Source: an uncultured Trueperaceae bacterium (GTDB lineage: Bacteria; Deinococcota; Deinococci; Deinococcales; Trueperaceae). Taken from it: DNA of 64,000 bases. Made by a program: the position numbers and the translations under genes. Each line of letters opens with the position of its first letter. The stretch's first letter is position 1. Of this stretch, positions 5,959-40,386 are shown piece by piece. The stretch covers positions 17,704 through 81,703 of the forward strand of contig CAVSGP010000008.1 of assembly GCA_963727505.1 (NCBI GenBank), given 5' to 3'. The notes under the pieces are model-generated. The model ran no database searches and was not told where the DNA came from. It saw only the letters and a list, made by a program, of their open reading frames with translations.

Positions 5959-6000
5959 CGGTGGGATGGGCCCGCTTCGCAACCGGTAGCGAAAGGACCA

Positions 6001-7560: not shown

Positions 7561-7570
7561 TCGCATCGAT

Positions 7571-7598
7571 GCCGGCGGCGGGGAGACCCGCCGCCGGC
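7571..7598 (+). terminator. GC hairpin after the binding-protein gene (mRNA stabiliser or attenuator)
   Basis: GCCGGCGGCGGG-GAGA-CCCGCCGCCGGC; no U-tract. Confidence 0.55.
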
Positions 7599-7659
7599 CC
7601 TCCATGACGTCCACGAGCGGCGCGGGCTCGGCACGCCGGCGGCGCCGCAGGAGCCCAGC

Positions 7660-8598: not shown

Positions 8599-8599
8599 G

Positions 8600-24019: not shown

Positions 24020-24252
24020 GCGTGTCCTCCCGCCGGGTCCGACCCGTACGCGTACGTTAGCCTTTCGCGCGGGTGGCAGGTGGCCCAACGGGAGGGACAA
24101 CGGCCGGAGGGGCGTGCGTCGACCGTCTACACGGCCTCCCAGCAGCAGGCGCAGCACGGCGGCGGGCAGCACGGTGCCGGACCCTGGTCGACGGGCTTAT
24201 CGACGTCGGACGCCGACGAACCTCGTGAGCGCCGGCACTATGATGGGGCGCC

Positions 24253-24915: not shown

Positions 24916-24981
24916 AGATACTCACCGTTTCGGGCGCCCGACGCGCCCGGGAGTAGGGCAGCCGGGGCCCGCCGCCGACGG

Positions 24982-26013
24982 CTAGCGGGTGCGGGTGACC
25001 TTGCGCAGGTGGCGGGGCGCGTCCGGATCGATCCCGCGCGAGCGCGCCAGGCGTTCGGCGAGGAGCTGGCCGGCCACGACCAGCACGAAGCTCGCCGTGA
25101 CCTCGTGCAGCCCTTCGGGCAGCGCCGCCGACGCGGATGCGAGGCGCAACAGCGAGGGTGCGCCCGCCAGCACCGTCAGGTCGGCGCCGACCTCGCGCAG
25201 CCGCGAGGCGACCGCCTCGTTTCCACTCAGGCTGGCGTCCTCGGTCGCCAGCAGCAGCAGCGGGTCGCCGGCGTCCACCACCGCGATGGGGCCATGCTGG
25301 AACTCGGCGCTGGAGTACGCCTGGGCGTCGATGTAGGCCGTCTCCTTGAGCTTGAGGGCGGTCTCCAGCGCGGCCGCGAACGACAGGCCGCGCCCCAGCA
25401 CGTAGAGCCCATCGGCGTGCGTCAGTCGCAGCGCCGCCCGCTCCAAGGCGTCCACGTCGGCCAGCAGGGTCTCCAGCGCGGGCGGGACGGCGTCGAGCGC
25501 AGCGCGCAGATCGTCGTCGGCCGCCCACTCCGCCACCAGTCGCGCCAGCACCATCATCTGGCTGGTGAAGGTCTTGCTCGCCGCCACCGCCTGTTCCTCG
25601 CCGGCGTGCTGTGCCAGCGCGTGGTCGGCCTGCGTCGCCAGATGGCTGCCCGGCTGGTTGGTCACGGCCAGCGTGAGCGCGCCGGCCTCCTGCAGCGCGG
25701 CCAGACCTTCCACCACGTCGGTGCTCTCGCCGGACTGGCTGACGCCGATGCCGAGCGCGCCCTCGAGCCGCAGGCGGGCGCCGTAGAGGGTGAGCAGCGA
25801 GGGCGGCACGCTCGCCACCGGCAACCCCAGGCTGCGGCCCGCCAGATAGGCGAAGAAGGTGACGGCGTTGTCCGACGAGCCACGCGCCAGCGTGGCGACC
25901 AGCGGCACGTCGCGGCCGCGCAGCTCGCCCGCCAGCTCGGCAACGGACGGGTCCTGCAGGATGCGCGCCAGGACGGCGGGTTGCTCGGCGATCTCGCGTT
26001 CGAAGTGACTCAC
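24982..26013 (-). CDS. SIS-domain sugar-phosphate isomerase/deaminase (glucosamine-6-P deaminase, GlmD/NagB-II type)
   Basis: EIAEQP, ARGSS, SQSGES, AVAASKTF, ALKLKET, EFQHGP; no glutaminase domain. GTG start overlaps the murQ stop. Confidence 0.85.
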   Translation of the reverse strand: MSHFEREIAEQPAVLARILQDPSVAELAGELRGRDVPLVATLARGSSDNAVTFFAYLAGRSLGLPVASVPPSLLTLYGARLRLEGALGIGVSQSGESTDVVEGLAALQEAGALTLAVTNQPGSHLATQADHALAQHAGEEQAVAASKTFTSQMMVLARLVAEWAADDDLRAALDAVPPALETLLADVDALERAALRLTHADGLYVLGRGLSFAAALETALKLKETAYIDAQAYSSAEFQHGPIAVVDAGDPLLLLATEDASLSGNEAVASRLREVGADLTVLAGAPSLLRLASASAALPEGLHEVTASFVLVVAGQLLAERLARSRGIDPDAPRHLRKVTRTR

Positions 26014-26897
26014 GGGTCCTCCCGTCGATCGTCCAGTGCGTCGCGCACGCGGTCGCGGTGGCGCGCGAGAAGTGTGCGGGCCACCTCCGGGTCGACGCCC
26101 GCCTCCAGCATCACGATGGCCTCGCGGATCCCCCAGGCGGCGGCGGCCAGGGAACGTTCGGCAGCCTCGCGCGGCGCGCCGGTGGCCGCGCACACCACCT
26201 CCACCGCCCTTCGCCGGAGCTTGGCGTTGGTGGGGCGCATGCCGACCATCAGGTTCCGGTAGGCGCCGCCCGAGCGCACGAGCACGGCCGTGGACAGCGC
26301 GTTGAGGGCGATCTTCTGCGCCGTGCCTGCCGCCAGCCGGGTGGAGCCGGCCAGCACCTCCGGTCCGGTATCCAGCAGGACGCCGACCTCGGCCGCGGCG
26401 AGCAGCGGTGTGCCGGCGTTGTTGGCGATGCCGACGGTGAACGCGCCGCGTTCGCGGGCGGCGTGGATCACGCTGAGGGTGTAGGGCGTGCGGCCGCTGG
26501 CCGCGATGCCGAGGACCGCGTCGTCCGGCCCCAGGCCGGCGCCCGCGACGTCGCGGGCGGCCGCGTCCGTGTCGTCCTCGGCGTTCTCGACGGCCACGGC
26601 GCCGGCGCTGCCGCCGCCGGCCATGAGCACCACGGTGCGCTCGAAGCCGAAGGTGGGCGGCAACTCCGCGGCGTCCTGCAGGGCGATGCGGCCCGAGGTT
26701 CCGGCGCCCGCGTACACGAGCCGACCGCCACGCGACAGGCGCGCCTCGACGCCGATCGCCGCCCGCTCCAGCGCGTCGCGTGCGTTCCACGCGGCATCGA
26801 CCGCGCGCTGGCCGCCATCGACGACGGCATCGACGATGCGGCCGAGGGACCAGACGTCGAGGTCCCGGTAGTTGGGGTCGCGGCCCTCCGTGGTCAT
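26010..26897 (-). CDS. murQ: N-acetylmuramic acid 6-phosphate etherase
   Basis: TTEGR, YAGAGTSGRI...DAAELPPTFG, IAASGRTPY, TGPEVLAGSTRL, NLMV, NAKLRRRA. Confidence 0.93.
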   Translation of the reverse strand: MTTEGRDPNYRDLDVWSLGRIVDAVVDGGQRAVDAAWNARDALERAAIGVEARLSRGGRLVYAGAGTSGRIALQDAAELPPTFGFERTVVLMAGGGSAGAVAVENAEDDTDAAARDVAGAGLGPDDAVLGIAASGRTPYTLSVIHAARERGAFTVGIANNAGTPLLAAAEVGVLLDTGPEVLAGSTRLAAGTAQKIALNALSTAVLVRSGGAYRNLMVGMRPTNAKLRRRAVEVVCAATGAPREAAERSLAAAAWGIREAIVMLEAGVDPEVARTLLARHRDRVRDALDDRREDP

Positions 26898-27661
26898 GGC
26901 TCGCCCGCCCGCAGGTGCAGCACCATGCGGTACATGTCGCCACGATACGCACTGCGCACGAACTCGAAGGGCCGGCCGTTGCCGTCGTACGTGGTGCGCT
27001 CGAGCTCGAGCACCGGGACGTCGCGGCCGATCTGCAGCAACCGGCACTCCTTGGCCGTCGGAAGGCGCGCGCCTACGGCCTGCCGCGCTCGTGCCGGACG
27101 GATCCCGAACTGCGCTTCCAGGCAGCGGTAGAGGCTGCCGGTGCGCTCCAGCTCCTCGAGCGACAGCGCCGCGACATGCGGGGCCAGGTTCGCCGCCTGC
27201 AGGGCGAGCGGTGCGTCGTCGGCGCCGCGAAGGCGCTCGATGCGGAGCAGCGGTGCGCCCGCCGGCACGAGCAGGGCGGCGGCGGCGTCACGGTCGGCGG
27301 GGACCTCGGAGGACGCGAGCAGACGTGCGGTGGGATGGAACCCGAGGCCGCGGGCCTCGTCGGTGAAGCCCAGCACGCGATCGAGCACCTGTTCCAGGGG
27401 GTGGCCCCGGACGTACGTGCCCGAACCCTGGCGCTGCTCCACCAGGTCTCGGCGCTCGAGTTCCTCGAACGCGCGGCGCACGGTCATGCGCGACAGCCCG
27501 AGTTGCTGCGCCAGCTCGCGTTCGCTGGGCAGCGCCTGCCCGGGGCTGAGCGAGCCGTCCTCGATGGCCTGCTCCAGCGCCTGGCGGAGCTGCAGGTACG
27601 CCGGCGTCGGCAGGGCCTTGTCGATGGCGGGCGCGAACGTCATGGGACGCTCGGCCGCCAC
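26894..27661 (-). CDS. GntR/HutC-family regulator with UTRA domain (NagR/DasR-like); alternative start ATG 27643
   Basis: LPSERELA...SRMTVRRA...QGSGTYV HTH; C-terminal UTRA domain. Confidence 0.92.
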   Translation of the reverse strand: MAAERPMTFAPAIDKALPTPAYLQLRQALEQAIEDGSLSPGQALPSERELAQQLGLSRMTVRRAFEELERRDLVEQRQGSGTYVRGHPLEQVLDRVLGFTDEARGLGFHPTARLLASSEVPADRDAAAALLVPAGAPLLRIERLRGADDAPLALQAANLAPHVAALSLEELERTGSLYRCLEAQFGIRPARARQAVGARLPTAKECRLLQIGRDVPVLELERTTYDGNGRPFEFVRSAYRGDMYRMVLHLRAGEP

Positions 27662-27681
27662 GGGGCTACGACCGTGACCAT

Positions 27682-27718
27682 GCCACTATTGTACCAATCC
27701 GCGCCGGGCCTCTATACT
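27682..27718. promoter_or_regulatory. Overlapping divergent promoters (gntR / sugar ABC)
   Basis: Plus strand TTGTAC-18 bp-TATACT; minus strand extended -10 TGG-TACAAT overlapping that -35. Confidence 0.6.
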
Positions 27719-27888
27719 TGACTCGTCCAACGAGGGTGCCGCGCGAGGTGCAAGCGGCCAAGCCGCCGGAGTCGGCCGGGCGACGTCCGCTCCTCCCGAA
27801 CGAACCGGCGGCGTGCTGTCCCCGACGGCGCCCTCGAGCGCTCTCCCGACCGCGATGCCGGCGGGGGAGGATCGATCGGAGGAAAGGT

Positions 27889-29121
27889 ATGAAGAGGATC
27901 GGTGGCATGCGTCTCCTGGCCGTTCTGCTCGGCCTGGTCCTGCTTGGCAGCGCGGCAGCGCAATCGCTGTCGTTCTGGAGCTGGCGTACGGAGGACGTCG
28001 ACGCCTACAACAGCTTCATCGCCGCGTTCCAGAAGGATCACCCCAACATCGACGTCACGTTCACGCCCTACAAGAACACCGAATACAACACCATCCTGTC
28101 GACCGCCATGCAAGGCGGCGGCGGCCCGGACATCGCCCACCTGCGCGCCTACGGCGGCATAGAACCACTGGCGGAGGCCGGCTTGCTGGTTCCCCTGGGC
28201 GACAAGGTGCCGGCGCTCGCCAACTTCGACCCCAACGTGCTCAAGGCCGCCACCGACCGCGCCGACGGCAAGGTCTACGGGGTGCCATTCGCGCTCCAGA
28301 CCATCCAGGTCCTGTACAACAAGGACGTCTTCGCCAAGCTCGGCCTCAGCGAACCCAAGACCTGGCAGGAGTTCCTCGACGTCGCGCAGAAGATCAAGGC
28401 GTCCGGGATCGACGCGCTCGCCAACGGCACCAAGGACCCATGGACGGTCGAGACGCTGTTCGGCGGCGTGGCCCCGGCGTTCTACGGCTGCAACGCCTTC
28501 TACGACAAGATGGCGGCCGGCACGTCCACCTTCGAGGACCCCGCCTTCAAGGGCGCGCTACAGCGCATGGTCGACCTCGAGCCCTACCTGGCGAGCAACT
28601 ACCAGGGCGTGGCCTACTCCGACATGCAGTCGCTGTTCGCCTACGGCCAGGCCGGCATGCTCATCGGCGGCAGCTACGAGCTCGGCACGCTCGCCCAGCT
28701 CGCTCCCGACTTCAACGTCGGCTCGTTCCTGATCCCCAACGATCAGGGCCAGACCTGCGAGACCTTCTACGTCGACGGCTCGTACGGCATCAACACGGCC
28801 AGCAAGCACCAGGACGCCGACGTGCAGTTCATCAACTTCCTGGCGAGCAAGGCGTACGGTCAGATGTTCACCGACACCCTGAAGCAGATCTCGGCGGTAC
28901 CCGGTGTCCTCCCGACCGATCCGGTACTGGCGCAGATGGCCGACCGGATGCACAGCGAAGGCACGCCCTACCTGATGCTCACGCTCTTCCGCTACGGTCA
29001 GCCCTCGGGCTCGACGCTGTTGCAAAACGAGATGCAGGCCGTGCTGGCCGGTAGCGAGACCGTCGACCAGGCGGCCGCCAACATCCAGCGCGGGGTGGCG
29101 ACCTGGTACACCTTCCAATAG
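27889..29121 (+). CDS. Sugar ABC transporter substrate-binding protein (probably amino sugar/muropeptide-derived)
   Basis: GGAGG RBS; signal peptide; GPDI, YGVPFA, YNKDVF, PKTWQEF. Confidence 0.88.
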   Translation: MKRIGGMRLLAVLLGLVLLGSAAAQSLSFWSWRTEDVDAYNSFIAAFQKDHPNIDVTFTPYKNTEYNTILSTAMQGGGGPDIAHLRAYGGIEPLAEAGLLVPLGDKVPALANFDPNVLKAATDRADGKVYGVPFALQTIQVLYNKDVFAKLGLSEPKTWQEFLDVAQKIKASGIDALANGTKDPWTVETLFGGVAPAFYGCNAFYDKMAAGTSTFEDPAFKGALQRMVDLEPYLASNYQGVAYSDMQSLFAYGQAGMLIGGSYELGTLAQLAPDFNVGSFLIPNDQGQTCETFYVDGSYGINTASKHQDADVQFINFLASKAYGQMFTDTLKQISAVPGVLPTDPVLAQMADRMHSEGTPYLMLTLFRYGQPSGSTLLQNEMQAVLAGSETVDQAAANIQRGVATWYTFQ

Positions 29122-29154
29122 CCCGGGTGGACGCGCGCATCGTGTCCCCCGCGT

Positions 29155-29184
29155 GGTGGGGTCGGGCTTCGGCCCGACCCCACC
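29155..29184 (+). terminator. Hairpin after the binding-protein gene
   Basis: GGGGTCGGGC-TTCG-GCCCGACCCC stem with a TTCG tetraloop. Confidence 0.55.
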
Positions 29185-29248
29185 CTCCTGATGGAGCAGC
29201 CGTGCCGGCAGGCCCGCTCCGGCCCGCCCGGGCGACGGGCGCTGCCCG

Positions 29249-30178
29249 ATGACGGGCGCGCGGGTGTGGTTCCGTCGCCACGGTCACCTGGTGGTGTTCC
29301 TGGCGCCGGGGTTGCTCCTCTACGGGCTGTTCATGGCCTACCCGCTGCTCACGTCGCTGTCGTACAGCCTGTCGGACTGGCACGGCCTGCTGCGCGGCGC
29401 CTTCTCGGGCTTCGCCAACTTCACCAAGGTCCTGACGCAGTGGCCGTACAACGTGCGCTTCTGGGGCGCGTTGAGTCACAACGCCCTGTTCTTCTTGTTG
29501 ACCTTCCTGATCCAGTCCACCCTGGGGCTGTTCCTGGCCGTGCTGCTGAGCCGCAAGTGGCGCGGCTTCGCCTTCTTCCAGGCGGCATATTTTCTTCCCT
29601 ACACGATGTCGATGGTGGTCGTGGGCTTCCTCTGGCTGCTGCTGCTCAACCCCACCTGGGGCCCCGTGGCACACGGCCTCAGGCTGGTGGGCCTGGGCGA
29701 GTGGGTGCAGCCGTGGTTGGGGCAACGCGGCACGGCCCTCGTCACCGTGATCCTGGTCAACTCCTGGCACTGGCTGGGCTTCCCGGTGCTGGTCTTCATG
29801 GCCGCCATCCAGGGCATCCCGCGCGAGTTCTACGAGGCCGGACTGGTGGACGGCGCCAACGACTGGCAGGGCTTCCGCTTCATCACCTTGCCGTTGTTGC
29901 TCCCCAGCCTCGCCATGATGTCGATCCTCACCTTCATCTGGGACTTCAACGCCTTCGAGCTCGTGTTCGTCATGCAGGGTGCGTCGGGGTCGCCGAACTA
30001 CGCCACCGACCTGCTGGCGACCCTCTTCTACCGGACCGCCTTCGGGGACCCCACCACCGGCGGCGAGCCCGGGCAGATCGGCCTGGCCTCGGCCATCGGC
30101 GTGCTGATGCTGATCATCATCGGTGCCGCCTCGGCCTTCGGCGTGCGCTTCACCCAGCGCAGCCAGACGGAGTATTGA
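29249..30178 (+). CDS. Carbohydrate ABC transporter permease
   Basis: EFYEAGLVDGAN EAA loop; multiple TMs. Confidence 0.9.
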   Translation: MTGARVWFRRHGHLVVFLAPGLLLYGLFMAYPLLTSLSYSLSDWHGLLRGAFSGFANFTKVLTQWPYNVRFWGALSHNALFFLLTFLIQSTLGLFLAVLLSRKWRGFAFFQAAYFLPYTMSMVVVGFLWLLLLNPTWGPVAHGLRLVGLGEWVQPWLGQRGTALVTVILVNSWHWLGFPVLVFMAAIQGIPREFYEAGLVDGANDWQGFRFITLPLLLPSLAMMSILTFIWDFNAFELVFVMQGASGSPNYATDLLATLFYRTAFGDPTTGGEPGQIGLASAIGVLMLIIIGAASAFGVRFTQRSQTEY

Positions 30179-30179
30179 C

Positions 30180-31043
30180 ATGCTTCCCCGCGCCCCTACG
30201 GCCCGGTCGCGCCCGCCAACAGCGCGCGTGCTCTCCCGCCTGCTGATCTACCTGGTGCTCGTGCTGCTGGCGCTGGGCTTCCTCTACCCCATCGCGCTGA
30301 TGGTGCTCGACGCCTTCAAGACGACACCCGAGATCTTCCGGAGCCCCTTCGGGCTGCCGTCGCACGTGGGCCTGGAGACCTTCCGCGAGGTCTGGCGCCG
30401 TGCCCACTTCGGCCTCTACCTGCGCAACAGCGTCCTGGTGACCGGAGGCTCGCTGGCGGTGCTGCTGGCCTGCGCGGCGCCCGCCGCCTACGCCATCGCC
30501 CGCTACCGCTTCCCGGTGCGGGGCCTGATCTTCCTGTTCTTCCTTGCCGGAATCATGGTACCGATCCGGCTCGGCATCCTCCCGCTCTATCTGCTGATGA
30601 AGCACCTGAGTCTGCTCGACACGCCGTTCTCGCTGATCCTCACGTACGCCGCGAGCGGCATGCCGATGTCGGTGTTCCTGCTGAGCACCTTCTTCCGAAC
30701 GCTCCCCAGCGATCTGGAGGACGCCGCGCGCATCGACGGCTGCAGCGAGTACCGCACTTTCTGGAGCATCATGCTGCCGCTGGTGCGCCCCGCCGTCGCC
30801 ACCGTGACGATCGTCAACGTCGTGCCCTGGTGGAACGACTTCTTCTTCCCGCTGCTGTTCCTGCAGAGCAACACCTGGAAGACGGTGCCGCTGGGCATGC
30901 AGATCTTCTTCGGTCAGCACCTGACGAACTGGAGCCTGGTGTTCGCCGGCATGCTGATGTCCAGCCTTCCCCTGCTTGTCGTCTACCTCCTGATGTCGCG
31001 GCAGTTCATCTCCGGCCTGACGTCGGGCGCGCTGAAGGGCTGA
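30180..31043 (+). CDS. Carbohydrate ABC transporter permease
   Basis: LEDAARIDGCS, WNDFFFP, C-terminal GALKG. Confidence 0.9.
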   Translation: MLPRAPTARSRPPTARVLSRLLIYLVLVLLALGFLYPIALMVLDAFKTTPEIFRSPFGLPSHVGLETFREVWRRAHFGLYLRNSVLVTGGSLAVLLACAAPAAYAIARYRFPVRGLIFLFFLAGIMVPIRLGILPLYLLMKHLSLLDTPFSLILTYAASGMPMSVFLLSTFFRTLPSDLEDAARIDGCSEYRTFWSIMLPLVRPAVATVTIVNVVPWWNDFFFPLLFLQSNTWKTVPLGMQIFFGQHLTNWSLVFAGMLMSSLPLLVVYLLMSRQFISGLTSGALKG

Positions 31044-31048
31044 GCTCC

Positions 31049-33316
31049 ATGGCGCCGATCGTCGCGCTCGGGATCGACCGCCTGGTGACCGACCCCGAGG
31101 TCTGGTTGCGGGGGCGCCGGGTGGCGCTGCTCGCCAACCATGCCTCGCTCACCTCCGAACACCGGCCCAGCGTGGACGCGCTGGGAGAGGCTCTGGGCGG
31201 CGGCCTGACGGCGTTGCTGACCCCCGAGCATGGGGCGAGCGGCTTCGAGGAGGATGCCACCGCCGTCCCGGACGGGCGTGACGCCCGCACCGGTCTCCCC
31301 GTCCACAGCCTCTACGGGCCGCGACGGCGACCCGACCCCGAGCTGCTGCGCCGCCTCGACGCGGTCGTGGTGGACCTGCGGGACGTTGGCGTGCGTTGCT
31401 ACACGTACGCCACCAGCGTGGCCCTGCTGCTCGAAGCCGCTCGCGAGACGGGCACCGAGGTGCTGGTGTGCGACCGGCCGTCGTTGCTCGGCCCGCGGGT
31501 CGACGGTCCCGCGCTCGACAGCGCGCGCCGTTCGTTCCTGGCGTATCTCGACGTTCCTCTCCAGCACGGCCTCACGCTGGGCGAGCTCGCCCGCCGCCAT
31601 GCGCGCCGGCTCGGCGGCGCGCCGCTGCGCGTGATCGCGGTCGAGGGGTGGCGCCGCGGCCAGCCGGATCCCGGGCCCTTCGTGCCCCCATCGCCCGGTC
31701 TGCCCTCGGCGGCTTCCGTGGCGTTGTACCCGGGGCTGGTCGCCCTCGAGGGCACCGGGCTCTCCGAGGGCCGTGGCACGCCGCTCCCCTTCGAGCTGGT
31801 GGGCGGTCCGGACGTCGACGGGCACGCGCTGGCCCGGGAACTGAACGCCCTCGGGCTGGGGGGCGTGTGGGCGCGGCCGGTGGCGTTCCGCCCGGACAGC
31901 GGCAAGCTCATGGGGCTGGCGTGCCAAGGGGTGCAGCTCCACCTCTCCGACCCCGCCGCGCTGCGGCCGCTCGAGCTCGGCGCCGCCGTGCTGCGCGCGC
32001 TGTTCGCGGCCGGGAAGGTGAGCTGGCGGCGGTCGGACGCCATGCCGTGGGCGCAGGCGCCGGACGCGGGGCGGCCCTGGCACGAGCCGGTGGAGGGCTT
32101 GCTGGTCGATGCCCTGTTGGGCGACGACAGTTTCCGTGCGGTGGCGGAGGGGCGGGTGTCGTTCGCGGATGCGGCCGGGCTCTGGGCGGAGCAGCACCAC
32201 GCCTACCTGGAGGCGTTGGACGGCGACCTGCTGTACCGTCCTGCACCTGCTGCATGGCCTGCAGGGACGTCGCAGGTGGCGTCGCGGGTGGCGCCGCATG
32301 GTCCAGCGCTCGGAGCGAGTCCGGCGCGGGCGGCGCCTCCGAGCGACGCGCGTCCGGCAGGGAACGACGCGCCGGCGGCGAGCCAAGGGACGCGTCAGGG
32401 CGGCCCGCTCGGCCTCGGCATCGACGCGGGCGGCTCGAGCACGCGCTGGCGGCTCGAGGGCCCCGCCGGGGCGGTGGCGGAGGGGCGGTTGCCAGCACTC
32501 GCCGGGCACCTCTACGACGACGCCGGGCGCAGCGATGCCGGCGCCCGGTTGAGCGAGCTGGCGGCGGCGGTGGCCGCCGCCTCGGCCGAGCCGCCGACGG
32601 CGGTGGTGGCCGGCGTCACGGGCCTGGCGCAGGCAGGCGCAGAAGCCACCTGGCTGCGTCGCGAGCTGGCCGCCGGGATCGGCCTTGCCGAAGCGGCGGT
32701 GACCGTGCTCGACGACATCGAGCTGGCCCTCAGGGCGGCCTTCGCGGGGGACGACGGTGTGCTGGTGTACGCCGGCACCGGTGCGATCGCCGTCGCCCGC
32801 GCGGGCGGTCAGCGGCTTCGCGCGGGTGGCCACGGCTACCTCCTGGACGACGATGGAGGGGGCTTCTCGATCGGGCGCGCGGCGCTCCGCGCCGTGCTGC
32901 GCCAGACCGACGCCCGTGGCAGCACGCCGGACACACCTCTCGCGCACCGGCTCTACGGCGCGATCGGGGGTGCCGACTGGGACAGGGTGCGCGCCTACGT
33001 CTACGGCGGCGGTCGCGGCGCCGTGGCGGCGCTGGTGCCGCTCGTCGTGCAGGCGGCGGCCGACGGGGACGGCGAGGCGCGCGCGATTCTGACGTGGGCC
33101 GGAGAGGAGCTCGCGCGCCTCGCCCGCCTCCTGCTCCAGCGCTGCGGCGAGCCGCGCCCGGTGGCTCTGGCAGGGGGGGTGGCCAAGGTCGGAGGCGCGC
33201 TCGAGGCGAGGTTCCGGGGCGCGCTGCCGGCGGGTACGGAAGTCCGCGTGCTCACGGACGAACCTGTCCGTGCGGCGGCCCGCCTGGCGTGGGTAGCAGC
33301 GCAGGGCGCGCGATAA
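31049..33316 (+). CDS. Fusion: exo-beta-N-acetylmuramidase NamZ (DUF1343) + BadF/BadG/BcrA/BcrD-family amino-sugar kinase
   Basis: N-terminal: ALLANHAS, PEHG, SLYG, DLRDVGVRCYTY, DRP, HGLTLGELA, PSPGLP, SEGRGT. C-terminal: GIDAGGSSTR, YAGTGA, RAGGHGYLLDDDGGG, LAGGV. Single uninterrupted ORF. Confidence 0.85.
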   Translation: MAPIVALGIDRLVTDPEVWLRGRRVALLANHASLTSEHRPSVDALGEALGGGLTALLTPEHGASGFEEDATAVPDGRDARTGLPVHSLYGPRRRPDPELLRRLDAVVVDLRDVGVRCYTYATSVALLLEAARETGTEVLVCDRPSLLGPRVDGPALDSARRSFLAYLDVPLQHGLTLGELARRHARRLGGAPLRVIAVEGWRRGQPDPGPFVPPSPGLPSAASVALYPGLVALEGTGLSEGRGTPLPFELVGGPDVDGHALARELNALGLGGVWARPVAFRPDSGKLMGLACQGVQLHLSDPAALRPLELGAAVLRALFAAGKVSWRRSDAMPWAQAPDAGRPWHEPVEGLLVDALLGDDSFRAVAEGRVSFADAAGLWAEQHHAYLEALDGDLLYRPAPAAWPAGTSQVASRVAPHGPALGASPARAAPPSDARPAGNDAPAASQGTRQGGPLGLGIDAGGSSTRWRLEGPAGAVAEGRLPALAGHLYDDAGRSDAGARLSELAAAVAAASAEPPTAVVAGVTGLAQAGAEATWLRRELAAGIGLAEAAVTVLDDIELALRAAFAGDDGVLVYAGTGAIAVARAGGQRLRAGGHGYLLDDDGGGFSIGRAALRAVLRQTDARGSTPDTPLAHRLYGAIGGADWDRVRAYVYGGGRGAVAALVPLVVQAAADGDGEARAILTWAGEELARLARLLLQRCGEPRPVALAGGVAKVGGALEARFRGALPAGTEVRVLTDEPVRAAARLAWVAAQGAR

Positions 33317-33358
33317 CGCTTCGATACCGCCGGGTCTGGCGCGCGGCCGCGAGCCTAC

Positions 33359-34342
33359 TCAGCCGTGCGCCAGACCCTCCCGCACGAAGCGGAGCTGCTC
33401 CAGCACGTGGAGCGTCTCGCCGCCCTCGTGCCCGTTGAAGCGGTACAGGCGCAGGGTCTTGGGTCCGGCGTAGTGGTTGTAGGTGGCGTACACCGTCGAC
33501 GGCGGTGAGATGAGGTCCATCAGGCCCGCCGAGAACAGGGCGCGCGCCGAGGCCCGGGCCGCGAAGTTCATGCCGTCGAAGTAGGCCAGGGTCGCGAAGA
33601 CGGCGCCCACCTTGCCCTTGTGGACCTTGCAGTAGCCGGCGATCTCGGCGTAGGGCGCAGCGTCGGTGATGGTGGCGGCGCGCTCGAAGTGGCACAGGAA
33701 GGGCACGTCCGGCAACGCCAGCGGCAGGTCGGGCACCAGGCCCGCCAGCGCCAGCGTGAGGCCGCCGCCCTGGCTCCGGCCGGTGGCCGCCACGCGTGCC
33801 GGGTCGACCGCCGGATGGGCGCGCAGGGTGCCCAGCGCCCGGACCGCGTCGGTGTACAGGCGACGGAAGTAGTAGGTCTCCGGGTCGAGGATGCCCGCCG
33901 TCATGAAGCCGGGATGGTGCGGCCCGGTGGCGTTGGGGTCGTCCATGGGATCGGCCGTGGCTCCCTCCAGCCAGGCGCTCCCCTGGCCGCGGGTGTCCAT
34001 CACCAGCGTGGCGAAGCCGGCGCTGGGCCACAGCAACCAGTCGGCGGGGAAGCCGCGACCGCCTCCGTAGCCGATGAACTCCACCATGCCCGGTAGCGGC
34101 CCGTCGCGGAGCTTCGGCAAGAGCAGCCAGCCGCGCACCGGCTGGCCCGCGAAGCCGGCGAAGGTGACGTCGAAGGCGTCGATGGTTGCCAGACCGGCGT
34201 CGAACGGTTCGAAGCGCGGCTCCCAGGCGCGTGCTTCGGCGTCGTCGAGGGTTGCTTTCCAGAAGGCATCGAAGTCATCGGGTGCGGTGAGGGGCGGGAG
34301 GTAGCGTTCGAGTTCCTCCAGGGGCAGGTCGAAGACAGCCAT
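33359..34342 (-). CDS. Acetylxylan esterase / cephalosporin-C deacetylase (CE7, AXE1)
   Basis: FDLPLEEL, P.DFDAFW, RGQ, GRSQGG, D..ISPPST, GHE. Confidence 0.92.
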   Translation of the reverse strand: MAVFDLPLEELERYLPPLTAPDDFDAFWKATLDDAEARAWEPRFEPFDAGLATIDAFDVTFAGFAGQPVRGWLLLPKLRDGPLPGMVEFIGYGGGRGFPADWLLWPSAGFATLVMDTRGQGSAWLEGATADPMDDPNATGPHHPGFMTAGILDPETYYFRRLYTDAVRALGTLRAHPAVDPARVAATGRSQGGGLTLALAGLVPDLPLALPDVPFLCHFERAATITDAAPYAEIAGYCKVHKGKVGAVFATLAYFDGMNFAARASARALFSAGLMDLISPPSTVYATYNHYAGPKTLRLYRFNGHEGGETLHVLEQLRFVREGLAHG

Positions 34343-34423
34343 GGGGCTTCCTTCCTCGCGCGGTGTGCCGCGGGCACGCCCAGGCTACCCGGTCGAGCGG
34401 CGCTTCTCGGCGCTGCGTGCGGG

Positions 34424-34613
34424 TCACACGTCTCGCCCGCGCAGGGTGGGGTCCAGCAGGTCCCGCATGCGCGGCATGCTTGTGCGTGGGCTGTCCTATC
34501 ACGTCTCGTCCCGCGCAGGGTGGGGTCCAGGAGGTCCCGCATGCGCGGCATGCTTGTGCGTGGGGCCTACACGTCCCTCCCGCGCAAGGTCGGGTCCAGG
34601 AGGTCCCGCATGC
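34424..34613. repeat. Three tandem ~70-bp copies of the dppC 3' end
   Basis: Copies at about 34424-34497, 34498-34566 and 34567-34613 (the last is inside the CDS). On the minus strand each encodes MRDLLDPTLRG. Confidence 0.9.
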
Positions 34614-35415
34614 CGTCGCCGAAGAGATTGAAGCCCAGCGAGGCCAGCAGGATGGCGAGTCCCGAGACGATCGACACCCAGGGCGAGAGGAGCATGTAGT
34701 CGCGGCTCTGCGAGAGCATCAGGCCCAGCGAGGGGGTGGGCGGCTGCGTGCCGAGGCCGAGGAAGCTCAGGCTGGCCTCGACCAGGATGGCGGTGGAGAG
34801 CGAGAGCGTGGTCTGCACCAGGATGGGCGCAAGGATGTTGGGCAGCACGTGGCGCATGATGATGCGCCCACCTCCCGCTCCCACCGCGCGGGCCGCGGCG
34901 ACGTAGTCCCACGACAGCACTGTCAGTGCGGGCCCACGGGCGAGCCGCGCGAAGATCGGCGTGTAGACGATGCCGATCGCCAGCGCCGTGTTGGTGCCGC
35001 CCGGACCCAGCACGGCCAGCACCGCGATGGCCAGCAGGATGATGGGGAATGCCAGCAGCACGTCCATGAGGCGCATCAGCAGGCGGTCGACCCAGCCGCC
35101 GAGGTACGCGGCGACAAGGCCGATGGTGGAGCCCAGCAACGTCGACAGGGCCACGGCACCGAACGACACCGCGATGGAGGTGCGGTAGCCGAAGAGGATG
35201 CGCGCCAGGGTGTCCCGGCCGAAGTTGTCCGTGCCGAGCAAGTGGTGGAGGCTGGGTCCCTCGAAGCGCTCCAACACGCTCTGGTGCAGAGGGTCGATGC
35301 CGACGACCCAGGGTCCGACGGAAGCGGCCAGCGCGACCAGGACAGCCAGCACGAAGCCCAGCATGCCGACGCGGTTGCGCCACAACCGCGCCAGGAAGTG
35401 ACGCACGGGCGCCAT
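34567..35415 (-). CDS. Peptide/Ni ABC transporter permease (DppC-like)
   Basis: HLLGTDNFGRD, RHVLPN, LSFLGLG, FNLFGDGMRDLLDP. Confidence 0.92.
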   Translation of the reverse strand: MAPVRHFLARLWRNRVGMLGFVLAVLVALAASVGPWVVGIDPLHQSVLERFEGPSLHHLLGTDNFGRDTLARILFGYRTSIAVSFGAVALSTLLGSTIGLVAAYLGGWVDRLLMRLMDVLLAFPIILLAIAVLAVLGPGGTNTALAIGIVYTPIFARLARGPALTVLSWDYVAAARAVGAGGGRIIMRHVLPNILAPILVQTTLSLSTAILVEASLSFLGLGTQPPTPSLGLMLSQSRDYMLLSPWVSIVSGLAILLASLGFNLFGDGMRDLLDPTLRGRDV

Positions 35416-36365
35416 CACCCGTACTCCACCCGCGGGTCGATCCAGGCGTAGGCCAGGTCGACGAGCAGGTTGACCACCACGAACACCGCGGTGATGGCGA
35501 GGACGATGCCCTGGATGAGCGGGTAGTTGCGCTGGTTGATGGCGCCGATGATCAGACGTCCGATGCCGGGGATGGCGAACACCTGCTCGATGACCACCAC
35601 GCCCGACAGCAGGTATCCGAGCTGCACGCCGATCACCGTGACGACCGGGATCATGGCGTTGCGCAGGGCGTGCTTGTAGAGCACCGGCCGTTCCGCCAGG
35701 CCCTTGGAGCGCGCCGTGCGGACGTAGTCGCTGTTGAGCACGTCGAGCAGGCTCGAGCGCAGGATGCGCGTCAGCCCCGCGATCATCGGTAGCGACACGG
35801 CCACCACCGGCAGCGCCATGCGCGCCAGGTTGCCGAGCGGATCCTGGCCGAACGGGACGTACCCGATCGCCGGCCAACCCGGCAGATAGAGCGAGAAGAC
35901 GAGCAGCATCAGCACGCCGACCCAGAAGGTCGGCAGCGTCAATCCCACGATCGACAGCACCCGAACCACCAGGTCGCTGGCGCTTCCGCGCGCGCGGGCC
36001 GACAGGACCCCGAGTGGGAAGGAGAGCACCAGCGCCAGCAGCAGCGCCAGTCCCGTGATCTCGAGGGTGGCGGGCGCGCGCGCCAGGATCTCGGCGCTCA
36101 CCGGCCGCCCGGTCCAGATGCTGGTACCCAGGTCGCCGTGCAGCACGCCCGTCAACCAGCGCCAATATTGCGCGTGGATGGGCAGGTCGAGGCCCAGGCT
36201 GTGGCGCAGCGCGGCGACCCGGTCGGGCGTGATGTCGGTGTTGGCCCCCAGCATGATCTCGACGGCGTCCCCGGGGATGAAGCGCACCATCAGGAACACC
36301 AGGATCGAGACGCCGAGTAGCACGAAGGCGAGGTCGATGAGGCGGCGGGCGATGTAACCGATCAT
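35415..36365 (-). CDS. Peptide/Ni ABC transporter permease (DppB-like)
   Basis: IPGDA, LGLD, GDLGTS, DYVRTARSKG, HALRNA, EQVFAIPGIG. Confidence 0.92.
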   Translation of the reverse strand: MIGYIARRLIDLAFVLLGVSILVFLMVRFIPGDAVEIMLGANTDITPDRVAALRHSLGLDLPIHAQYWRWLTGVLHGDLGTSIWTGRPVSAEILARAPATLEITGLALLLALVLSFPLGVLSARARGSASDLVVRVLSIVGLTLPTFWVGVLMLLVFSLYLPGWPAIGYVPFGQDPLGNLARMALPVVAVSLPMIAGLTRILRSSLLDVLNSDYVRTARSKGLAERPVLYKHALRNAMIPVVTVIGVQLGYLLSGVVVIEQVFAIPGIGRLIIGAINQRNYPLIQGIVLAITAVFVVVNLLVDLAYAWIDPRVEYG

Positions 36366-36486
36366 GCGGGCACGGGTGTCATGCGCGAACCTTGAGCGCT
36401 CGGGGGCGCGAGAGGGGTGGGGGCGCACACGCCCCCACCCCAGGCTAGCCCGAAGGGCCGCTTCGAGCGCGACGGGAACGGCGGCG

Positions 36487-37987
36487 CTACGGCAGGCTCA
36501 CCTCGCGCAGGTAGCGCAGGCCGCGCGTGGGCATCTGCTGGAAGCCCTGGACGTTGTCGCGCAGGCCCGTGAAGAGCGTCCCGTAGGCGATGTGGACGAT
36601 GGGTCCGGTGCAGGCGAGCTGCTTCTGGAGGTTGTCGTAGATCGCCTGGCGCTGGCCCTTGTCGGCGGTGGTGCGGCCCTGGTCGAGCAGGGTGTCGACC
36701 GACGGGTCGCTGAACTTGAAGATGTTGGTCGAGCCGCCGGTGTGGAACGTGCGGTAGAGGTAGCCGTCGGGGTCGGTGGAGCCGCCGTTCAGGCTCACGA
36801 ACATGTCGAAGTTCGAGTTCTTCCAGTCCTGGACGAACTTGCCGAACTCCTCCACATCGACCTTGGCGTCGATGCCGACCTGCGCGAGCTGCGCCTGGAG
36901 CACCTGGGCGGTGTCGGACACCTCCTTGATGGTGCCGAAGGTGATGATGGTGGTCTTGAAGCCGTTGGGGTAGCCGGCGTCGGCCAGCAACTGCTTGGCC
37001 TTCGCCACGCTGGGCTGGTAGCAGGGGAACTGCGAGACCGGCACGGCCCAGTCCTTCAGCGCCGGGCTGAGTGGGCCGCCCGGCACGGCGTTGCCGAGGT
37101 AGACGGCCTGCACGATGTCGGAGCGGTTCACCGCGTAGTTGATGGCCTCACGCACGCGCGGGTCGTCGAAGGGCTTGCGGCTGACGTTGAGGCCGAGCAG
37201 CGAGTAGGCAAGATCTTGCGTGCCCATCACGGTGACGCCGCCGGCGTTCTTGAGCGTCTGCGCGGTGACGGGGTCGACCGTGGGGAGGAGCTGGTAGGTG
37301 CCGGTGCGCAGCCCCGCGGCCCGGGTGGACGCCTCGGGCACGATGTTGAACTTGAGCTCGGCCACCTTGGGCTCGCCCGGCCGGTAGTAGTCGGGGTTCG
37401 CCTTGAGCAGCACGTAGGTGTCGGGGACGACCTTGTCGAGCTCGAAGGGGCCGGTGCCGACCGCCACCTTCTGCAGGTTGCCGTTGGCCTCGACGACCTC
37501 CTTGGGCACGACGTAGAGGTTGGTGAGGTTGGCGAGGAAGGGAGCGAACGGCTCCTTCAGCGTGAAGCGCACCTCGTACGGTCCCGTGGCCTCGATCTTG
37601 GACACCTCGCTGAAGCGGCTGGCCTGCGGCGAGCCGGTGTTGGGGTCCATGATGCGGTCGTAGGAGTAGACGACGTCGGCCGACGTCATCTGCGCGGCCG
37701 TTGTGGAACTTGACGCCCTGGCGCAGCTCGAACGTGTAGCTCAGGCCGTCGGGCGACACCGACCACGACGTCGCCAGCGCGGGCTCGAGCTGGAGCTTGC
37801 TGTTGACCTCCAGCAGCCCCTCGTAGATCTGGTCGACCACGGCGAAGGACGAGAAGGCCGTGACGATGTCGGGGTCGAGACCGACCGGCGATTGGTCGAC
37901 GGCGATCTCGAGCGTTCCCTGTTGCGCATACGCCAGGCTCATGGCGGCGACGAGCGCTGCTACGAGCAGACCGATACGGATTCGCAT
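36487..37987 (-). pseudogene. Peptide ABC substrate-binding protein (DppA-like), split by a 1-nt insertion (real or sequencing error)
   Basis: Signal peptide...LDP...YEGL...LRQGVKFHNG in one frame continues as AQMTSADVVYS...VGTGPF in another. Removing one C at about 37696 restores the frame. GGAGG RBS. Confidence 0.85.
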
Positions 37988-38119
37988 ACCAACCTCCTTC
38001 TGCGATGGTGGCAGGGAAGCCCGTCCCCCACGCAAGCCACGGCTGCCGACGGAACAATTGCGACGCGCCTAGTGTACCATTCCCAGACCAGTCGATTCAA
38101 TCGTGCTAGCGTTGCGGCC

Positions 38120-39205
38120 ATGAACCATGCAGCAGCGGCCGAGGCCCGGGGCCGGGACGCCGTGGCAGCCGCCCTCGAGGCGGCGGTCGCGGACGGGACG
38201 GTGCCGGGAGGCGTGCTCCTGGTCGGCGGCGCCGACCACGTCTGGGACCCCGTCGTCGCCGGCGTACGGCGCTACGGGGGGGAGCGCGTGACGCGCGACA
38301 CCCGCTACGACCTCGCCTCGCTCACCAAGGTCGTCGGCTGCCTGAGCGCCCTGTTGCACCTCCTCGACGCCGGTGCGCTGACCCTGGACGACCCGGTCCG
38401 GAAGTTCTTCAGCAACGCCGGCTGGTTCCAGGAACCCTCGCTCGGCGACGTTCGCCTCGAAGCGCTCGCCACCCACGTGTCGGGCCTGCCGGCGTGGCGG
38501 GCGCTGTTCGCGCAGGTCACAGGGCGCCGCATGGCCCTGGCCAGCGTGTTGCAGACGCCGCTCGAAGGGCCCGCCGACCGCTTCCGCTACTCCGATCTCG
38601 GGGTCATCGTCCTGACGGCCGTCATCGAGCGCGTCGCCGGGGAGCGGATCGATGCGCTGCTGGCGCGCGAAGTCTTCGAGCCGCTCGGCATGGACCGCAC
38701 CGGCTACGGCCCGCTCGACCCCGGCCTCCCCGTCGCCGCCACCGAGGACGACGGCCTGCGCGGTGGTGTCCTGCAGGGCGTCGTCCACGACGAGAACGCC
38801 TGGGCGTTGGAGGGTATCTCCGGGCACGCCGGCCTGTTCGCCCCGGCTTCCGACGTGCTCGCCTTCGGCCTGGCCTGGCTGCGGCTCCAGGCGCCGTTCG
38901 CCTCGGAGGGCACGCTCCGGTCGGCCCTGCGCGATCGCTCCGGCGGCGAGGGCGCTCGTCGCGGCCTGCTGTGGCGCCTGGGCGAGCCCGATGGGTTCTT
39001 CGGGCCGGAGACGACGGAGGCGGCGTTCGGGCACACCGGCTTCACCGGCACCAGCCTGGTGGTGGAGCCGCGTCAGGGCTGGACGGCCGCCCTCCTCACC
39101 AACCGCGTGCACCCGACCCGCGAGGCGGGTGCCGGGATCGACGACCTGCGCAGGCGCGTGCACGGCCTGGTGGCCGGCGCGTTCGACGAGGAGGCGCTGC
39201 GATGA
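38120..39205 (+). CDS. Serine hydrolase, beta-lactamase/AmpC family (AmiE-like muramyl-peptide amidase by context)
   Basis: SLTK (SxxK), YSD, GVVHDENA, GHAGLF, GHTGFTGT; no signal peptide. Confidence 0.85.
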   Translation: MNHAAAAEARGRDAVAAALEAAVADGTVPGGVLLVGGADHVWDPVVAGVRRYGGERVTRDTRYDLASLTKVVGCLSALLHLLDAGALTLDDPVRKFFSNAGWFQEPSLGDVRLEALATHVSGLPAWRALFAQVTGRRMALASVLQTPLEGPADRFRYSDLGVIVLTAVIERVAGERIDALLAREVFEPLGMDRTGYGPLDPGLPVAATEDDGLRGGVLQGVVHDENAWALEGISGHAGLFAPASDVLAFGLAWLRLQAPFASEGTLRSALRDRSGGEGARRGLLWRLGEPDGFFGPETTEAAFGHTGFTGTSLVVEPRQGWTAALLTNRVHPTREAGAGIDDLRRRVHGLVAGAFDEEALR

Positions 39206-40380
39206 CGGATTCCGAACAGGGTGCGGCCGTTCCCGGCGATCTGGCAGCGATGACGGTGCTCGGCCTCATGTCGGGCACCTCGCTGGACGGGGTGGACACG
39301 GTCACCGTACGCCTGGCGCGGCGCGGCGGCCGGCTCGACTGGGAGGTGCTGGCGCGCGCTTCCCACCCCTACGACGATGCCCTGCGCGAGCGCTTGCAGC
39401 GCGCCATCGATCCGGCGCGCTCCGACGTGATCCTGTTGACCGAGCTCCACCAGGAGGTGGGGCGGGCCTACGCCGACGCGGCGGCTTCGGCCGCCGCGCG
39501 CCACCCGCTCGACCTGGTGGGCCTCTCGGGCCAGACCGTGTACCACATCCCCCGAGCCGACGAGGAACGGGGCTGGCACGTGGTGAGCACCCTGCAGCTG
39601 GGGGAGGCGAGTGTCGTGACCGAGCGTTGCTCGGTCGTGACGGTGTCGGACTTCCGGCAGGCGGACCTGGCGGCGGGCGGTCAGGGGGCGCCGATGGTGC
39701 CCTTCGCCGACCTACAGCTCTACCACCGGCCAGGGGAGCGGATCGCCGTGCAGAACATCGGCGGCATCGGCAACGTCACCGTGCTGCCGGCCGACGGCGA
39801 CCCGGCGGCGGTGCAGGCGTTCGACACCGGTCCCGGCAATTGCCTGATGGACGAGGCGATGGAGTTGCTGTTCGACGAGCCGTTCGACGATCAGGGGCGG
39901 GTGGCGGCCTCGGGGCGCGTTCTGGGCGACGCCCTGCAGCGGCTGCTCTCCGAGCCCTACTTCGAGCTCCCGCCACCCAAGACCACCGGCCGCGAGCTGT
40001 TCACGCTTCCGCGCGCCATGGAGCGCGGCGGTCTCGAGGGCGCGGCCCCCGCCGACGTGGTCGCGACCCTGAACGCGTTCACCGTGGCGTCGATCGCGCA
40101 GGCGTACGAACGCCACGTGCTGCCCGGAGGCCTCGATGAGGTGCTGATCGCGGGCGGCGGCGCCCGCAACCCGGTCCTGGTCGAGGGACTGCGCCGGCGC
40201 CTGCCGGTGCGGGTCCGTACCTTCCGGGAGGCCGGCTACCAGGACAAGGACCGCGAGACGCTGGCGATGGCGGTGATGGCGTTCATGGCGTTCCACGGGG
40301 AGCCGAACGTGCTGCCCGCAGCGACGGGCGCGCGGCATCCGGTGATCGCGGGGAAGGTGTGCCGGCCCTACCGGGGTTGA
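39202..40380 (+). CDS. anmK: Anhydro-N-acetylmuramic acid kinase
   Basis: GLMSGTSLDGVD, GQTVYH, DFRQAD..AGGQGAPMVP, NIGGIGN, FDTGPGN, PPKTTGRELF, GGGARN. Confidence 0.96.
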   Translation: MTDSEQGAAVPGDLAAMTVLGLMSGTSLDGVDTVTVRLARRGGRLDWEVLARASHPYDDALRERLQRAIDPARSDVILLTELHQEVGRAYADAAASAAARHPLDLVGLSGQTVYHIPRADEERGWHVVSTLQLGEASVVTERCSVVTVSDFRQADLAAGGQGAPMVPFADLQLYHRPGERIAVQNIGGIGNVTVLPADGDPAAVQAFDTGPGNCLMDEAMELLFDEPFDDQGRVAASGRVLGDALQRLLSEPYFELPPPKTTGRELFTLPRAMERGGLEGAAPADVVATLNAFTVASIAQAYERHVLPGGLDEVLIAGGGARNPVLVEGLRRRLPVRVRTFREAGYQDKDRETLAMAVMAFMAFHGEPNVLPAATGARHPVIAGKVCRPYRG

Positions 40381-40386
40381 AGCGCG

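Follow-up and report, generated by a model that had tools for sequence, protein, structure and literature searches.

A predicted peptidoglycan-salvage locus with two ATPase-less ABC importers and a NamZ::kinase fusion in an uncultured Trueperaceae bacterium

The DNA analysed here, hereafter the window, is a stretch of 64,000 nucleotides from an uncultured Trueperaceae bacterium (GenBank assembly GCA_963727505.1, contig CAVSGP010000008.1, positions 17,704 to 81,703). Its G+C content is 70%, and the host genome amounts to 3.26 Mb in 15 contigs and is rated 97.4% complete. Between window positions 24982 and 40380 lie 13 genes in four tightly packed operons with two divergent promoter regions, as judged from Pfam and NCBIfam models and from the N-termini. 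We propose that they form a repressor-controlled locus in which two ATP-binding cassette (ABC) importers without ATPase genes would take up periplasmic peptidoglycan fragments, to be broken down in the cytoplasm to fructose-6-phosphate. On the strength of sequence comparison we put the probability of this reading at about 0.68. The genes and the two operator-like boxes are as follows.

24982-26013, minus strand: putative SIS-domain sugar-phosphate deaminase/isomerase, NagB-II-like, 343 aa (Pfam SIS 97.3 bits)
26010-26897, minus strand: MurQ, N-acetylmuramic acid (MurNAc)-6-phosphate etherase, 295 aa (NCBIfam NF003915)
26894-27643, minus strand: GntR/HutC-type regulator with UTRA effector domain, 249 aa (Pfam GntR 78.4 bits, UTRA 135.5 bits)
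27686-27699, plus strand: operator-like box 1 (CTATTGTACCAATC; pattern CTANTGTACCANTC)
27889-29121, plus strand: CUT1-type sugar-binding protein (SBP_bac_1 137.1 bits)
29249-30178 and 30180-31043, plus strand: two CUT1 ABC permeases (BPD_transp_1 56.8 and 61.1 bits)
31049-33316, plus strand: NamZ_N, NamZ_C and BadF kinase in a single 755-aa open reading frame (ORF) (NamZ_N 184.1, NamZ_C 110.3, BcrAD_BadFG 67.8 bits)
33359-34342, minus strand: CE7 acetyl esterase, 327 aa (AXE1 348.6 bits)
34567-35415, minus strand: DppC permease (BPD_transp_1, OppC_N; GsiD/DppC-like in NCBIfam)
35415-36365, minus strand: DppB permease (BPD_transp_1, BPD_transp_1_N; NikB/GsiC-like in NCBIfam)
36487-37987, minus strand: Dpp-type (cluster C) binding protein, frameshifted (SBP_bac_5 270.6 bits)
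38069-38082, plus strand: operator-like box 2 (CTAGTGTACCATTC), followed by conserved AGACCAGT and TGCTAGCGT
38120-39205, plus strand: beta-lactamase-fold serine hydrolase with SLTK motif (Beta-lactamase 162 bits)
39202-40380, plus strand: AnmK, anhydro-MurNAc (anhMurNAc) kinase (Pfam AnmK 296.4 bits)

The Pfam scan covered 25 ORF translations between 24.2 and 43.9 kb and the NCBIfam scan 15; the ORFs without a match in the former were antisense shadows of the 13 genes. One minus-strand unit consists of gntR, murQ and the SIS gene, with an ATGA overlap between the first two and a GTGA overlap between the last two, and the divergent plus-strand unit encodes the sugar-binding protein, two permeases and the NamZ::kinase fusion with gaps of 1-127 nt. 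A second minus-strand unit contains, in order, the Dpp-type binding protein, dppB, dppC and CE7 genes, and divergent from it the hydrolase gene overlaps anmK by ATGA. Overlaps of 1-4 nt and gaps of 1-5 nt are found in the four operons. An initial annotation had described a salvage locus for peptidoglycan and MurNAc, independent of the phosphotransferase system (PTS), with two importers and two kinases. All the genes that it listed are confirmed between 24982 and 40380, none of the 25 translations is a NagA, NagZ, PTS or ABC ATPase protein, and the description is supported by gene content and by the lack of a PTS EIIC gene genome-wide.

In the fusion protein, NamZ_N and NamZ_C exceed their Pfam cut-offs of 26.9 and 25 bits, and the NamZ half matches PDB entries 4k05 (2.1e-46) and 4jja (1.6e-41). 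A search of a 5.8-billion-protein collection, in which 8000 candidates were scored, returned 37 matches, 12 of them full-length proteins of the same architecture (62-100% identity, the window's own included) with both halves conserved in their alignment. The remainder comprised one shorter form, 16 NamZ-only proteins and 8 in which NamZ is joined to a beta-lactamase-fold domain, giving Rosetta-stone links of 12 clusters for NamZ with the kinase and 8 for NamZ with the beta-lactamase fold. Aligned to 4jja, Glu60 of a PEHG motif and Arg242 of a GRGT motif are invariant in the 12 fusions; they would correspond to Glu92 (end of strand 2) and Arg279 (C-terminal domain), named in a passage of PMC8054146 as putatively catalytic in Bacillus subtilis NamZ. 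The kinase half has a BadF/ASKHA fold (BcrAD_BadFG cut-off 31.5 bits, exceeded), its phosphate-binding motifs GIDAGGSSTRW and AGTGAIA are conserved across the 12 fusions, and it matches PDB entries 2e2n (2.5e-19) and the MurNAc/N-acetylglucosamine (GlcNAc) kinase 8zo3 (2.1e-14). We assign it at family level, and a role as MurNAc 6-kinase is suggested by context, namely the fusion to NamZ and an orthologue beside murQ in Deinococcus. With that Deinococcus murQ-cluster kinase it aligns at 121 bits (43% over 280 residues), compared with 65.5 bits for its own paralogue. The host genome carries a second BadF kinase on contig 10 (L046:8287-15237), directly before another CUT1 system (binding protein, two permeases and a 901-aa Glucodextran_B protein) that lies between fatty-acid synthesis genes and murJ.

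The two halves are joined by a low-complexity linker of variable length, about 50 residues in the window. We place the fusion in the cytoplasm, without a signal peptide, because homology to 4k05 begins at residue 8 and because an ATP-dependent kinase must be cytoplasmic. In excerpts of PMC8054146 and of a preprint (10.1101/2021.12.02.470905), characterised GH171 enzymes, the family of NamZ, are described as cleaving only after a non-reducing-end MurNAc and not pNP (p-nitrophenyl)-GlcNAc, and the preprint excerpt includes one member that releases a disaccharide. A cytoplasmic NamZ would therefore depend on uptake of a disaccharide or longer glycan, for which the CUT1 genes immediately upstream are the obvious supplier.

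The fusion is narrowly distributed. One or both halves are matched in 247 of 364 genomes of the phylum, a floor count from a stricter first look, and in the same counts matches that span both halves in a single frame come only from the window's genus (G330, G332, G326); the halves are adjacent in a few other genera. Scanning species-representative genomes with the fusion alignment gave 26 loci. The five closest come from metagenome-assembled genomes (MAGs) whose labels read Deinococci, Deinococcales, Trueperaceae or uncultured; named Deinococcus species account for three loci at a greater distance. An actinobacterial origin, which the 70% G+C had suggested, was rejected in view of these loci. 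By tblastn with the window proteins, the order of genes is conserved in L007, L008, L009 and partly L011, including the flank described below, and G330, from the window's genus, has the identical order with proteins 78-96% identical. In L009, a Deinococcales MAG, the NamZ gene (7116-8281) is read in two frames and the corresponding database protein (P0018) ends in out-of-frame Arg/Pro-rich text, so that the NamZ-only form there is probably a broken fusion.

Both binding proteins of the locus have a Sec signal peptide and, on reading of their N-termini, no lipobox cysteine, as expected for the periplasm. The sugar-binding protein is weakly similar to NgcE (54.3 bits, NCBIfam), and its generic PDB matches include the chitin-oligosaccharide binder 7eho (3.4e-25). 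A single MalK/UgpC-type ATPase is encoded in the genome, as an orphan on contig 4 (476.8 bits against a UgpC cut-off of 432), and is expected to serve as shared motor for the CUT1 systems. The CE7 esterase retains RGQ, GxSQG and HE motifs when aligned to PDB 1vlq (3.8e-120) and is catalytically intact. At 8 of 13 related loci its gene is no more than 2 kb away from the kinase gene or anmK, and all eight of these loci have the CUT1-NamZ module; removal of 6-O-acetyl groups before 6-phosphorylation would be a logical function. These same proteins could be read as acting on chitin or acetylated xylo-oligosaccharides, leaving only MurQ and AnmK concerned with peptidoglycan. Such a reading draws on the likeness of the binding protein to NgcE and the chitin-oligosaccharide binder, on the similarity of CE7 to a Thermotoga acetyl xylan esterase and on the fact that the best NCBIfam match of the kinase half is a GlcNAc kinase model. 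We think it improbable given the MurNAc specificity of the characterised GH171 enzymes, the operator common to the CUT1-NamZ operon and gntR-murQ (below) and the absence of chitinase or xylanase genes from the window.

Peptidoglycan salvage is also the preferred reading for the second half of the locus. AnmK scores 405.1 bits against the NCBIfam equivalog NF007148 (cut-off 387). The gene overlapping it encodes a PF00144 domain of 162 bits with SLTK as its SxxK motif, 34% identical (9e-36) to the corresponding half of P0031, a hydrolase::NamZ fusion, and 39% identical (1e-47) to the product of a gene beside murQ in Deinococcus. Its residue 9 aligns with residue 4 of the Deinococcus homologue, and in P0031 the homologous domain follows a hydrophobic leader. 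We consider the hydrolase cytoplasmic and devoid of a signal peptide because its homology starts at residue 9; the cytoplasmic location initially assigned to both this protein and the fusion is thereby upheld. B. subtilis AmiE has a beta-lactamase fold, and the hydrolase is a candidate AmiE-like MurNAc-L-Ala amidase, assigned at family level only. The overlap with anmK, the homologous domains fused to NamZ and, in part of PMC6987092, to a NagZ, and the position beside murQ in Deinococcus tie it to muramic acid.

An alternative is that the Dpp-type importer and the hydrolase, as an S12-type D-aminopeptidase/carboxypeptidase, handle sugar-free stem peptides, which would leave the sugar ABC system as the sole supplier of the MurNAc enzymes. 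The Dpp-type binding protein and permeases are indeed closest to GsiB/DppA/Nik-type peptide systems, and the PDB and NCBIfam neighbours of the hydrolase include the S12 peptidase 3wwx, AmpH and esterases. We nonetheless regard this as unlikely, although worth keeping in view: the ATGA overlap and the NamZ and NagZ fusions speak for a sugar-linked hydrolase, and at three of three Deinococcus loci the Dpp-type importer is the only transporter beside the hydrolase, MurQ, GntR and the kinase. Since no other importer adjoins the kinase and MurQ there, we argue that Dpp-type systems of this kind carry MurNAc-peptides. None of the Dpp-type permeases in the window, G330, L007, L008, L026-L028 or L047-L049 has adjoining ATPase genes. 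Genome-wide there are seven Dpp/Opp-type ATPase domains, one single and the rest in three pairs; those whose surroundings were inspected adjoin other transporters. On contig 9 (L041:8508-18360) the genome's only GH3 gene shares a row with genes for a Dpp-type importer (binding protein, two permeases and one DppD/F-type ATPase), a Gfo/Idh/MocA oxidoreductase and a xylose-isomerase-like TIM barrel; this cluster appears to be a sugar system built on a peptide-type transporter.

The Dpp-type binding-protein gene has one extra base at 37691-37693, a +1 frameshift whose frames join at GVKFHNGR / QMTSADV. Its orthologues in L007 and L008 are single ORFs, and the extra base is absent from contigs (at least 99% identity) of four of four metagenome runs from two studies; one of these samples may be the assembly source, so that their independence is incomplete. 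The extra base is likely to stem from an assembly error or a private mutation. Further along the same unit, a tandem repeat at 34414-34613 (period 74, 2.8 copies, 87% matches) begins within the last dppC codons and fills the 224-bp gap between dppC and CE7, where the equivalent gap in G330 is about 70 bp.

For the steps below MurNAc-6-phosphate, MurQ exceeds the cut-offs of NF003915 (325.9 bits, cut-off 168) and NF009222 (262.2, cut-off 255) and stays under that of TIGR00274 (247.3, cut-off 302). The SIS protein scores 202.9 bits with the NCBIfam model of the glmS isomerase half and matches PDB entries 3fj1 (2.1e-63) and 8eol, a 'glucosamine-6-phosphate deaminase' (5.2e-42); it is plausible that it acts as a glucosamine (GlcN)-6-phosphate deaminase. 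A NagA-like gene stands alone on contig 5, and two lytic transglycosylases with SLT domains are encoded in the genome; PTS EIIC, GH20, GH73 and AmpD-type Amidase_2 were not found in it. The idea that nagA, nagZ and shared ATPases reside elsewhere in the genome thus holds for the orphan NagA-like gene and the orphan MalK/UgpC-type ATPase and fails for NagZ, which is absent genome-wide and nearly genus-wide. Neither the NF003740 model nor tblastn with the NagZ of G248 found a NagZ in the window's genome, the latter yielding only a BglX-type GH3 at 33%. We rejected the genome's only GH3 as a substitute: it has GH3_N, GH3_C and Fn3-like domains, KHFALNNQE where NagZ has KHFPGHG, and arabinopyranosidase/beta-glucosidase models as its best matches.

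In the family, NF003740 matches 88 of 128 genomes (74 over the cut-off) and 27 of 36 genera. In the window's genus one of the nine other genomes has a match, under the cut-off, which leaves NagZ absent from 9 of 10 genomes with the window's included. AnmK is kept in 6 of the 10 (75-100% identity) and NamZ/kinase in 8; these tallies include one unpublished genome (G325), and several of the genomes without a match are only 70-92% complete. The clusters of G248, G289 and G243 do include a NagZ gene, immediately after a second Dpp-type system distinct from the first, and the G248 protein has the NagZ motif and no signal peptide. Because relatives in the family have the same cluster plus a cytoplasmic NagZ, we regard the window as a reduced form of a modular, lineage-typical cluster. 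One could go further and see a locus in decay, NagZ and the second Dpp system having been lost in the genus, the binding protein frameshifted and the 74-bp repeat expanded, with AnmK and NamZ/kinase themselves lacking from some genomes. That seems highly improbable to us: all other frames are open, G330 keeps gene order and protein similarity, the extra base is missing from the metagenome contigs, and several of the genomes that lack a match are incomplete.

The 14-nt pattern CTANTGTACCANTC, with 12 fixed bases, occurs exactly twice in the 3.26-Mb genome when both strands are scanned, at 27686 and 38069, once in each of the two divergent regions of the locus, and no other site with fewer than two mismatches was found genome-wide. 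As the pattern was derived from those two sites, the count is a specificity check rather than an independent test. The independent part of the evidence is conservation of box 1: the block CATGCCACTATTGTACCAATC between gntR and the binding-protein gene is identical in the window, L007, L008, L009 and G330, with one change in L011. Box 1 overlaps a TTGTAC -35-like hexamer, with a conserved TATACT 18 nt further on, and all 13 genes could be transcribed from the two divergent regions. The GntR/UTRA protein thus appears to repress the locus through the 14-nt boxes, and co-regulation of the genes, which the initial annotation had presumed, is supported because the pattern occurs only in these two regions; the synteny across relatives is likewise conserved. 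With up to three mismatches allowed (26 matches), nagA, the orphan ATPase gene and CE7 still had no site in front of them. An untranslated leader of about 165 nt (27722-27888) separates the conserved TATACT from the start of the binding-protein gene; in it, the block AACGAGGGYGCC just after the -10 element is conserved in four relatives and the remainder is variable; Rfam at E up to 0.1 gave no match over 24000-41000, and hence no known riboswitch in the leader.

The genes flanking the locus are unrelated to it: the left side has phosphoenolpyruvate carboxykinase (PEPCK) and a conserved ORF of no assigned family, and the right side encodes a CLC channel. The ORF (24253-24915, plus strand, 220 aa), between PEPCK and the SIS gene, occupies the same place in L007, L008, L009, L011, G248 and G330 at 54-82% identity. 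It has no Pfam or NCBIfam match, and a feature search led to DUF3298-like clusters (0.93), a likeness at feature level only; we left it out of the locus. Elsewhere in the window, a sugar-acid utilisation block (154-9526) comprises UxaE tagaturonate epimerase, a LacI regulator, the TRAP transporter DctPQM and a further ATPase-less CUT1 system. At 60459-64000, where G+C falls to 0.60, there is an MmeI-type restriction-modification gene fragment (MmeI_hel, MmeI_Mtase) that is possibly foreign DNA.

From the observed gene identities, cytoplasmic or exported locations, fusion, synteny, operator pair and genome-wide absences we infer every substrate and effector of the following scheme. In one route, the CUT1 system, driven by the orphan MalK/UgpC-type ATPase, would import peptide-free glycans with a non-reducing MurNAc end, such as MurNAc-GlcNAc. 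The NamZ half would free MurNAc, the attached kinase would convert it to MurNAc-6-phosphate (and possibly form GlcNAc-6-phosphate too), and CE7 would strip 6-O-acetyl groups that otherwise block 6-phosphorylation. In the other route, the Dpp-type system would import (anhydro)MurNAc-peptides, the beta-lactamase-fold hydrolase would remove the peptide and the translationally coupled AnmK would turn anhMurNAc into MurNAc-6-phosphate. Both would join at MurQ, giving GlcNAc-6-phosphate and D-lactate, after which the orphan NagA would deacetylate and the SIS enzyme deaminate GlcN-6-phosphate. The GntR/UTRA protein would repress all four operons through one 14-nt box per divergent region, to be released by a sugar phosphate of the pathway.

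Several observations weigh against this scheme. Four enzymes stay below the cut-offs of more specific models: the SIS protein with NagB_SO3506 (NagB-II; 214.5 bits, far under 430), the kinase half with NagK_SO3507 (67.6, far below 370), the hydrolase with the model for Escherichia coli PBP4B/YfeW (105.7, cut-off 385) and the NagA-like protein (211.5, just under 225.65). In PDB searches both binding proteins resemble only generic sugar or peptide binders, and none of the seven Dpp/Opp-type ATPases, which lie in other operons, is assigned to the locus. Moreover, the strain that was sequenced may truly carry the frameshift in its binding-protein gene. CE7 lacks an operator site of its own and is located elsewhere in L007, a consensus promoter scan gave no sites and terminator-like sites were not above shuffles. 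Lastly, substrate supply is a difficulty. No known enzyme of the genome frees anhMurNAc from GlcNAc-anhMurNAc, the product of the cell's own lytic transglycosylases, so that the supply for AnmK is unexplained, and none makes MurNAc-terminated fragments from its own wall (NagZ, GH20 and GH73 were searched; GH18, GH84 and GH85 were not). Either the real substrates are fragments pre-cut by other organisms, which would agree with scavenging, or an unrecognised enzyme exists. Scavenging the walls of other bacteria, as initially suggested, would fit a genome that has no known beta-N-acetylglucosaminidase.

E. coli-type recycling consists of AmpG, NagZ, AmpD, AnmK, MurQ and NagA. An outline of it is given in PMC13691567. 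The window shares AnmK, MurQ, NagA and cytoplasmic processing with that pathway and differs in its ABC import and in the genome-wide lack of NagZ and AmpD-type Amidase_2. In Staphylococcus aureus the disaccharide is phosphorylated during PTS uptake and then cut by a 6-phospho-muramidase. In both this MurP-MupG route, as covered in a section of PMC8054146, and the window MurNAc-GlcNAc is split inside the cell, but in the window cleavage would come first and phosphorylation second; the same text notes that NamZ and MupG tend to exclude each other. The murQ-murR-murP-amiE-nagZ-namZ(ybbC) operon of B. subtilis, in the portions of PMC8054146 and PMC5061867 that treat it, likewise unites MurQ, a GH171 NamZ and an AmiE-type amidase (in the window a candidate) in one regulated cluster and strips fragments to MurNAc and on to GlcNAc-6-phosphate. 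In B. subtilis, AmiE, NagZ and NamZ work as secreted enzymes, and the MurP PTS takes up MurNAc (PMC8054146, same portion), whereas in the window NamZ and the hydrolase are cytoplasmic, uptake would be by two ABC systems and phosphorylation by a fused BadF kinase and AnmK, the regulator is GntR/UTRA rather than RpiR and NagZ is missing. With no signal peptides on these enzymes, no PTS EIIC and no NagZ, the locus does not qualify as B. subtilis-type extracellular muropeptide rescue. PTS-independent uptake, an ATP-dependent MurNAc 6-kinase and MurQ recur in MurT-MurK-MurQ of Tannerella forsythia and with MurK of Clostridium acetobutylicum, where the kinases are free-standing and act on an imported monosaccharide (extracts of PMC10465942; see also PMC5790795). 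In the window the kinase instead follows an exo-muramidase in one polypeptide, so that the imported substrate should be a disaccharide or larger.

Closer relatives vary the same theme. Deinococcus oregonensis/aquatilis (L026-L028) together with G248, G289 and G243 have GntR/UTRA, MurQ, the hydrolase, an ATPase-less Dpp-type importer and the BadF kinase; the Deinococcus loci have no CUT1-NamZ module, nor CE7 or AnmK nearby, and G248, G289 and G243 have a cytoplasmic NagZ with KHFPGHGDTDVDSH after their second Dpp-type system, an arrangement missing from the window's genus. In Shouchella sp. (Bacillaceae; L030, 3568-14374) AnmK, NagZ, NamZ, an RpiR regulator and a BadF kinase are clustered. That cluster also contains lactate/glycolate-oxidase-like FAD and Fe-S proteins, and its BadF kinase is fused to a GNAT acetyltransferase. 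Deinococcota are diderm. The initial annotation had taken the locus to combine AnmK, as a Gram-negative type of route, with NamZ/AmiE/MurK as a Gram-positive one, an interpretation that our analysis does not support: the host is a member of Deinococcota and not a Gram-positive, AnmK, NagZ, NamZ and BadF kinase already occur together in a Bacillaceae, and relatives of the same family have the same cluster with cytoplasmic NagZ. The locus is rather a recombination of known enzyme families and a variant of a known pathway.

The component families, as well as PTS-independent, kinase-dependent use of MurNAc in Tannerella and Clostridium, were known before. New here are a cytoplasmic NamZ fused to a kinase, its combination with ABC import and GntR/UTRA control, CE7 as a regular neighbour and the loss of NagZ with AnmK retained. 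The literature search gave no paper that names MurQ with both AnmK and Deinococcus, DUF1343 with BadF, or NamZ with an ABC transporter and MurNAc-GlcNAc. More tentatively, it is possible that the CUT1 system imports unphosphorylated MurNAc-GlcNAc or short MurNAc-terminated glycans, that the fusion couples cleavage to 6-phosphorylation, that CE7 is a cytoplasmic 6-O-acetyl-MurNAc esterase and that the NagZ-less genus lives on fragments pre-cut by other bacteria. If true, this would be a third way to consume MurNAc-GlcNAc, beside PTS-MupG and extracellular NamZ plus PTS. Peptidoglycan recycling has so far been worked out in Proteobacteria, Bacillota and Tannerella. The locus offers candidates for three missing pieces, namely an ABC importer for MurNAc sugars, a kinase-coupled cytoplasmic exo-muramidase and an esterase step for O-acetylated muramic acid. 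Moreover, the genus-wide lack of NagZ with AnmK retained provides a clean natural experiment on the supply of anhydro-muramic acid.

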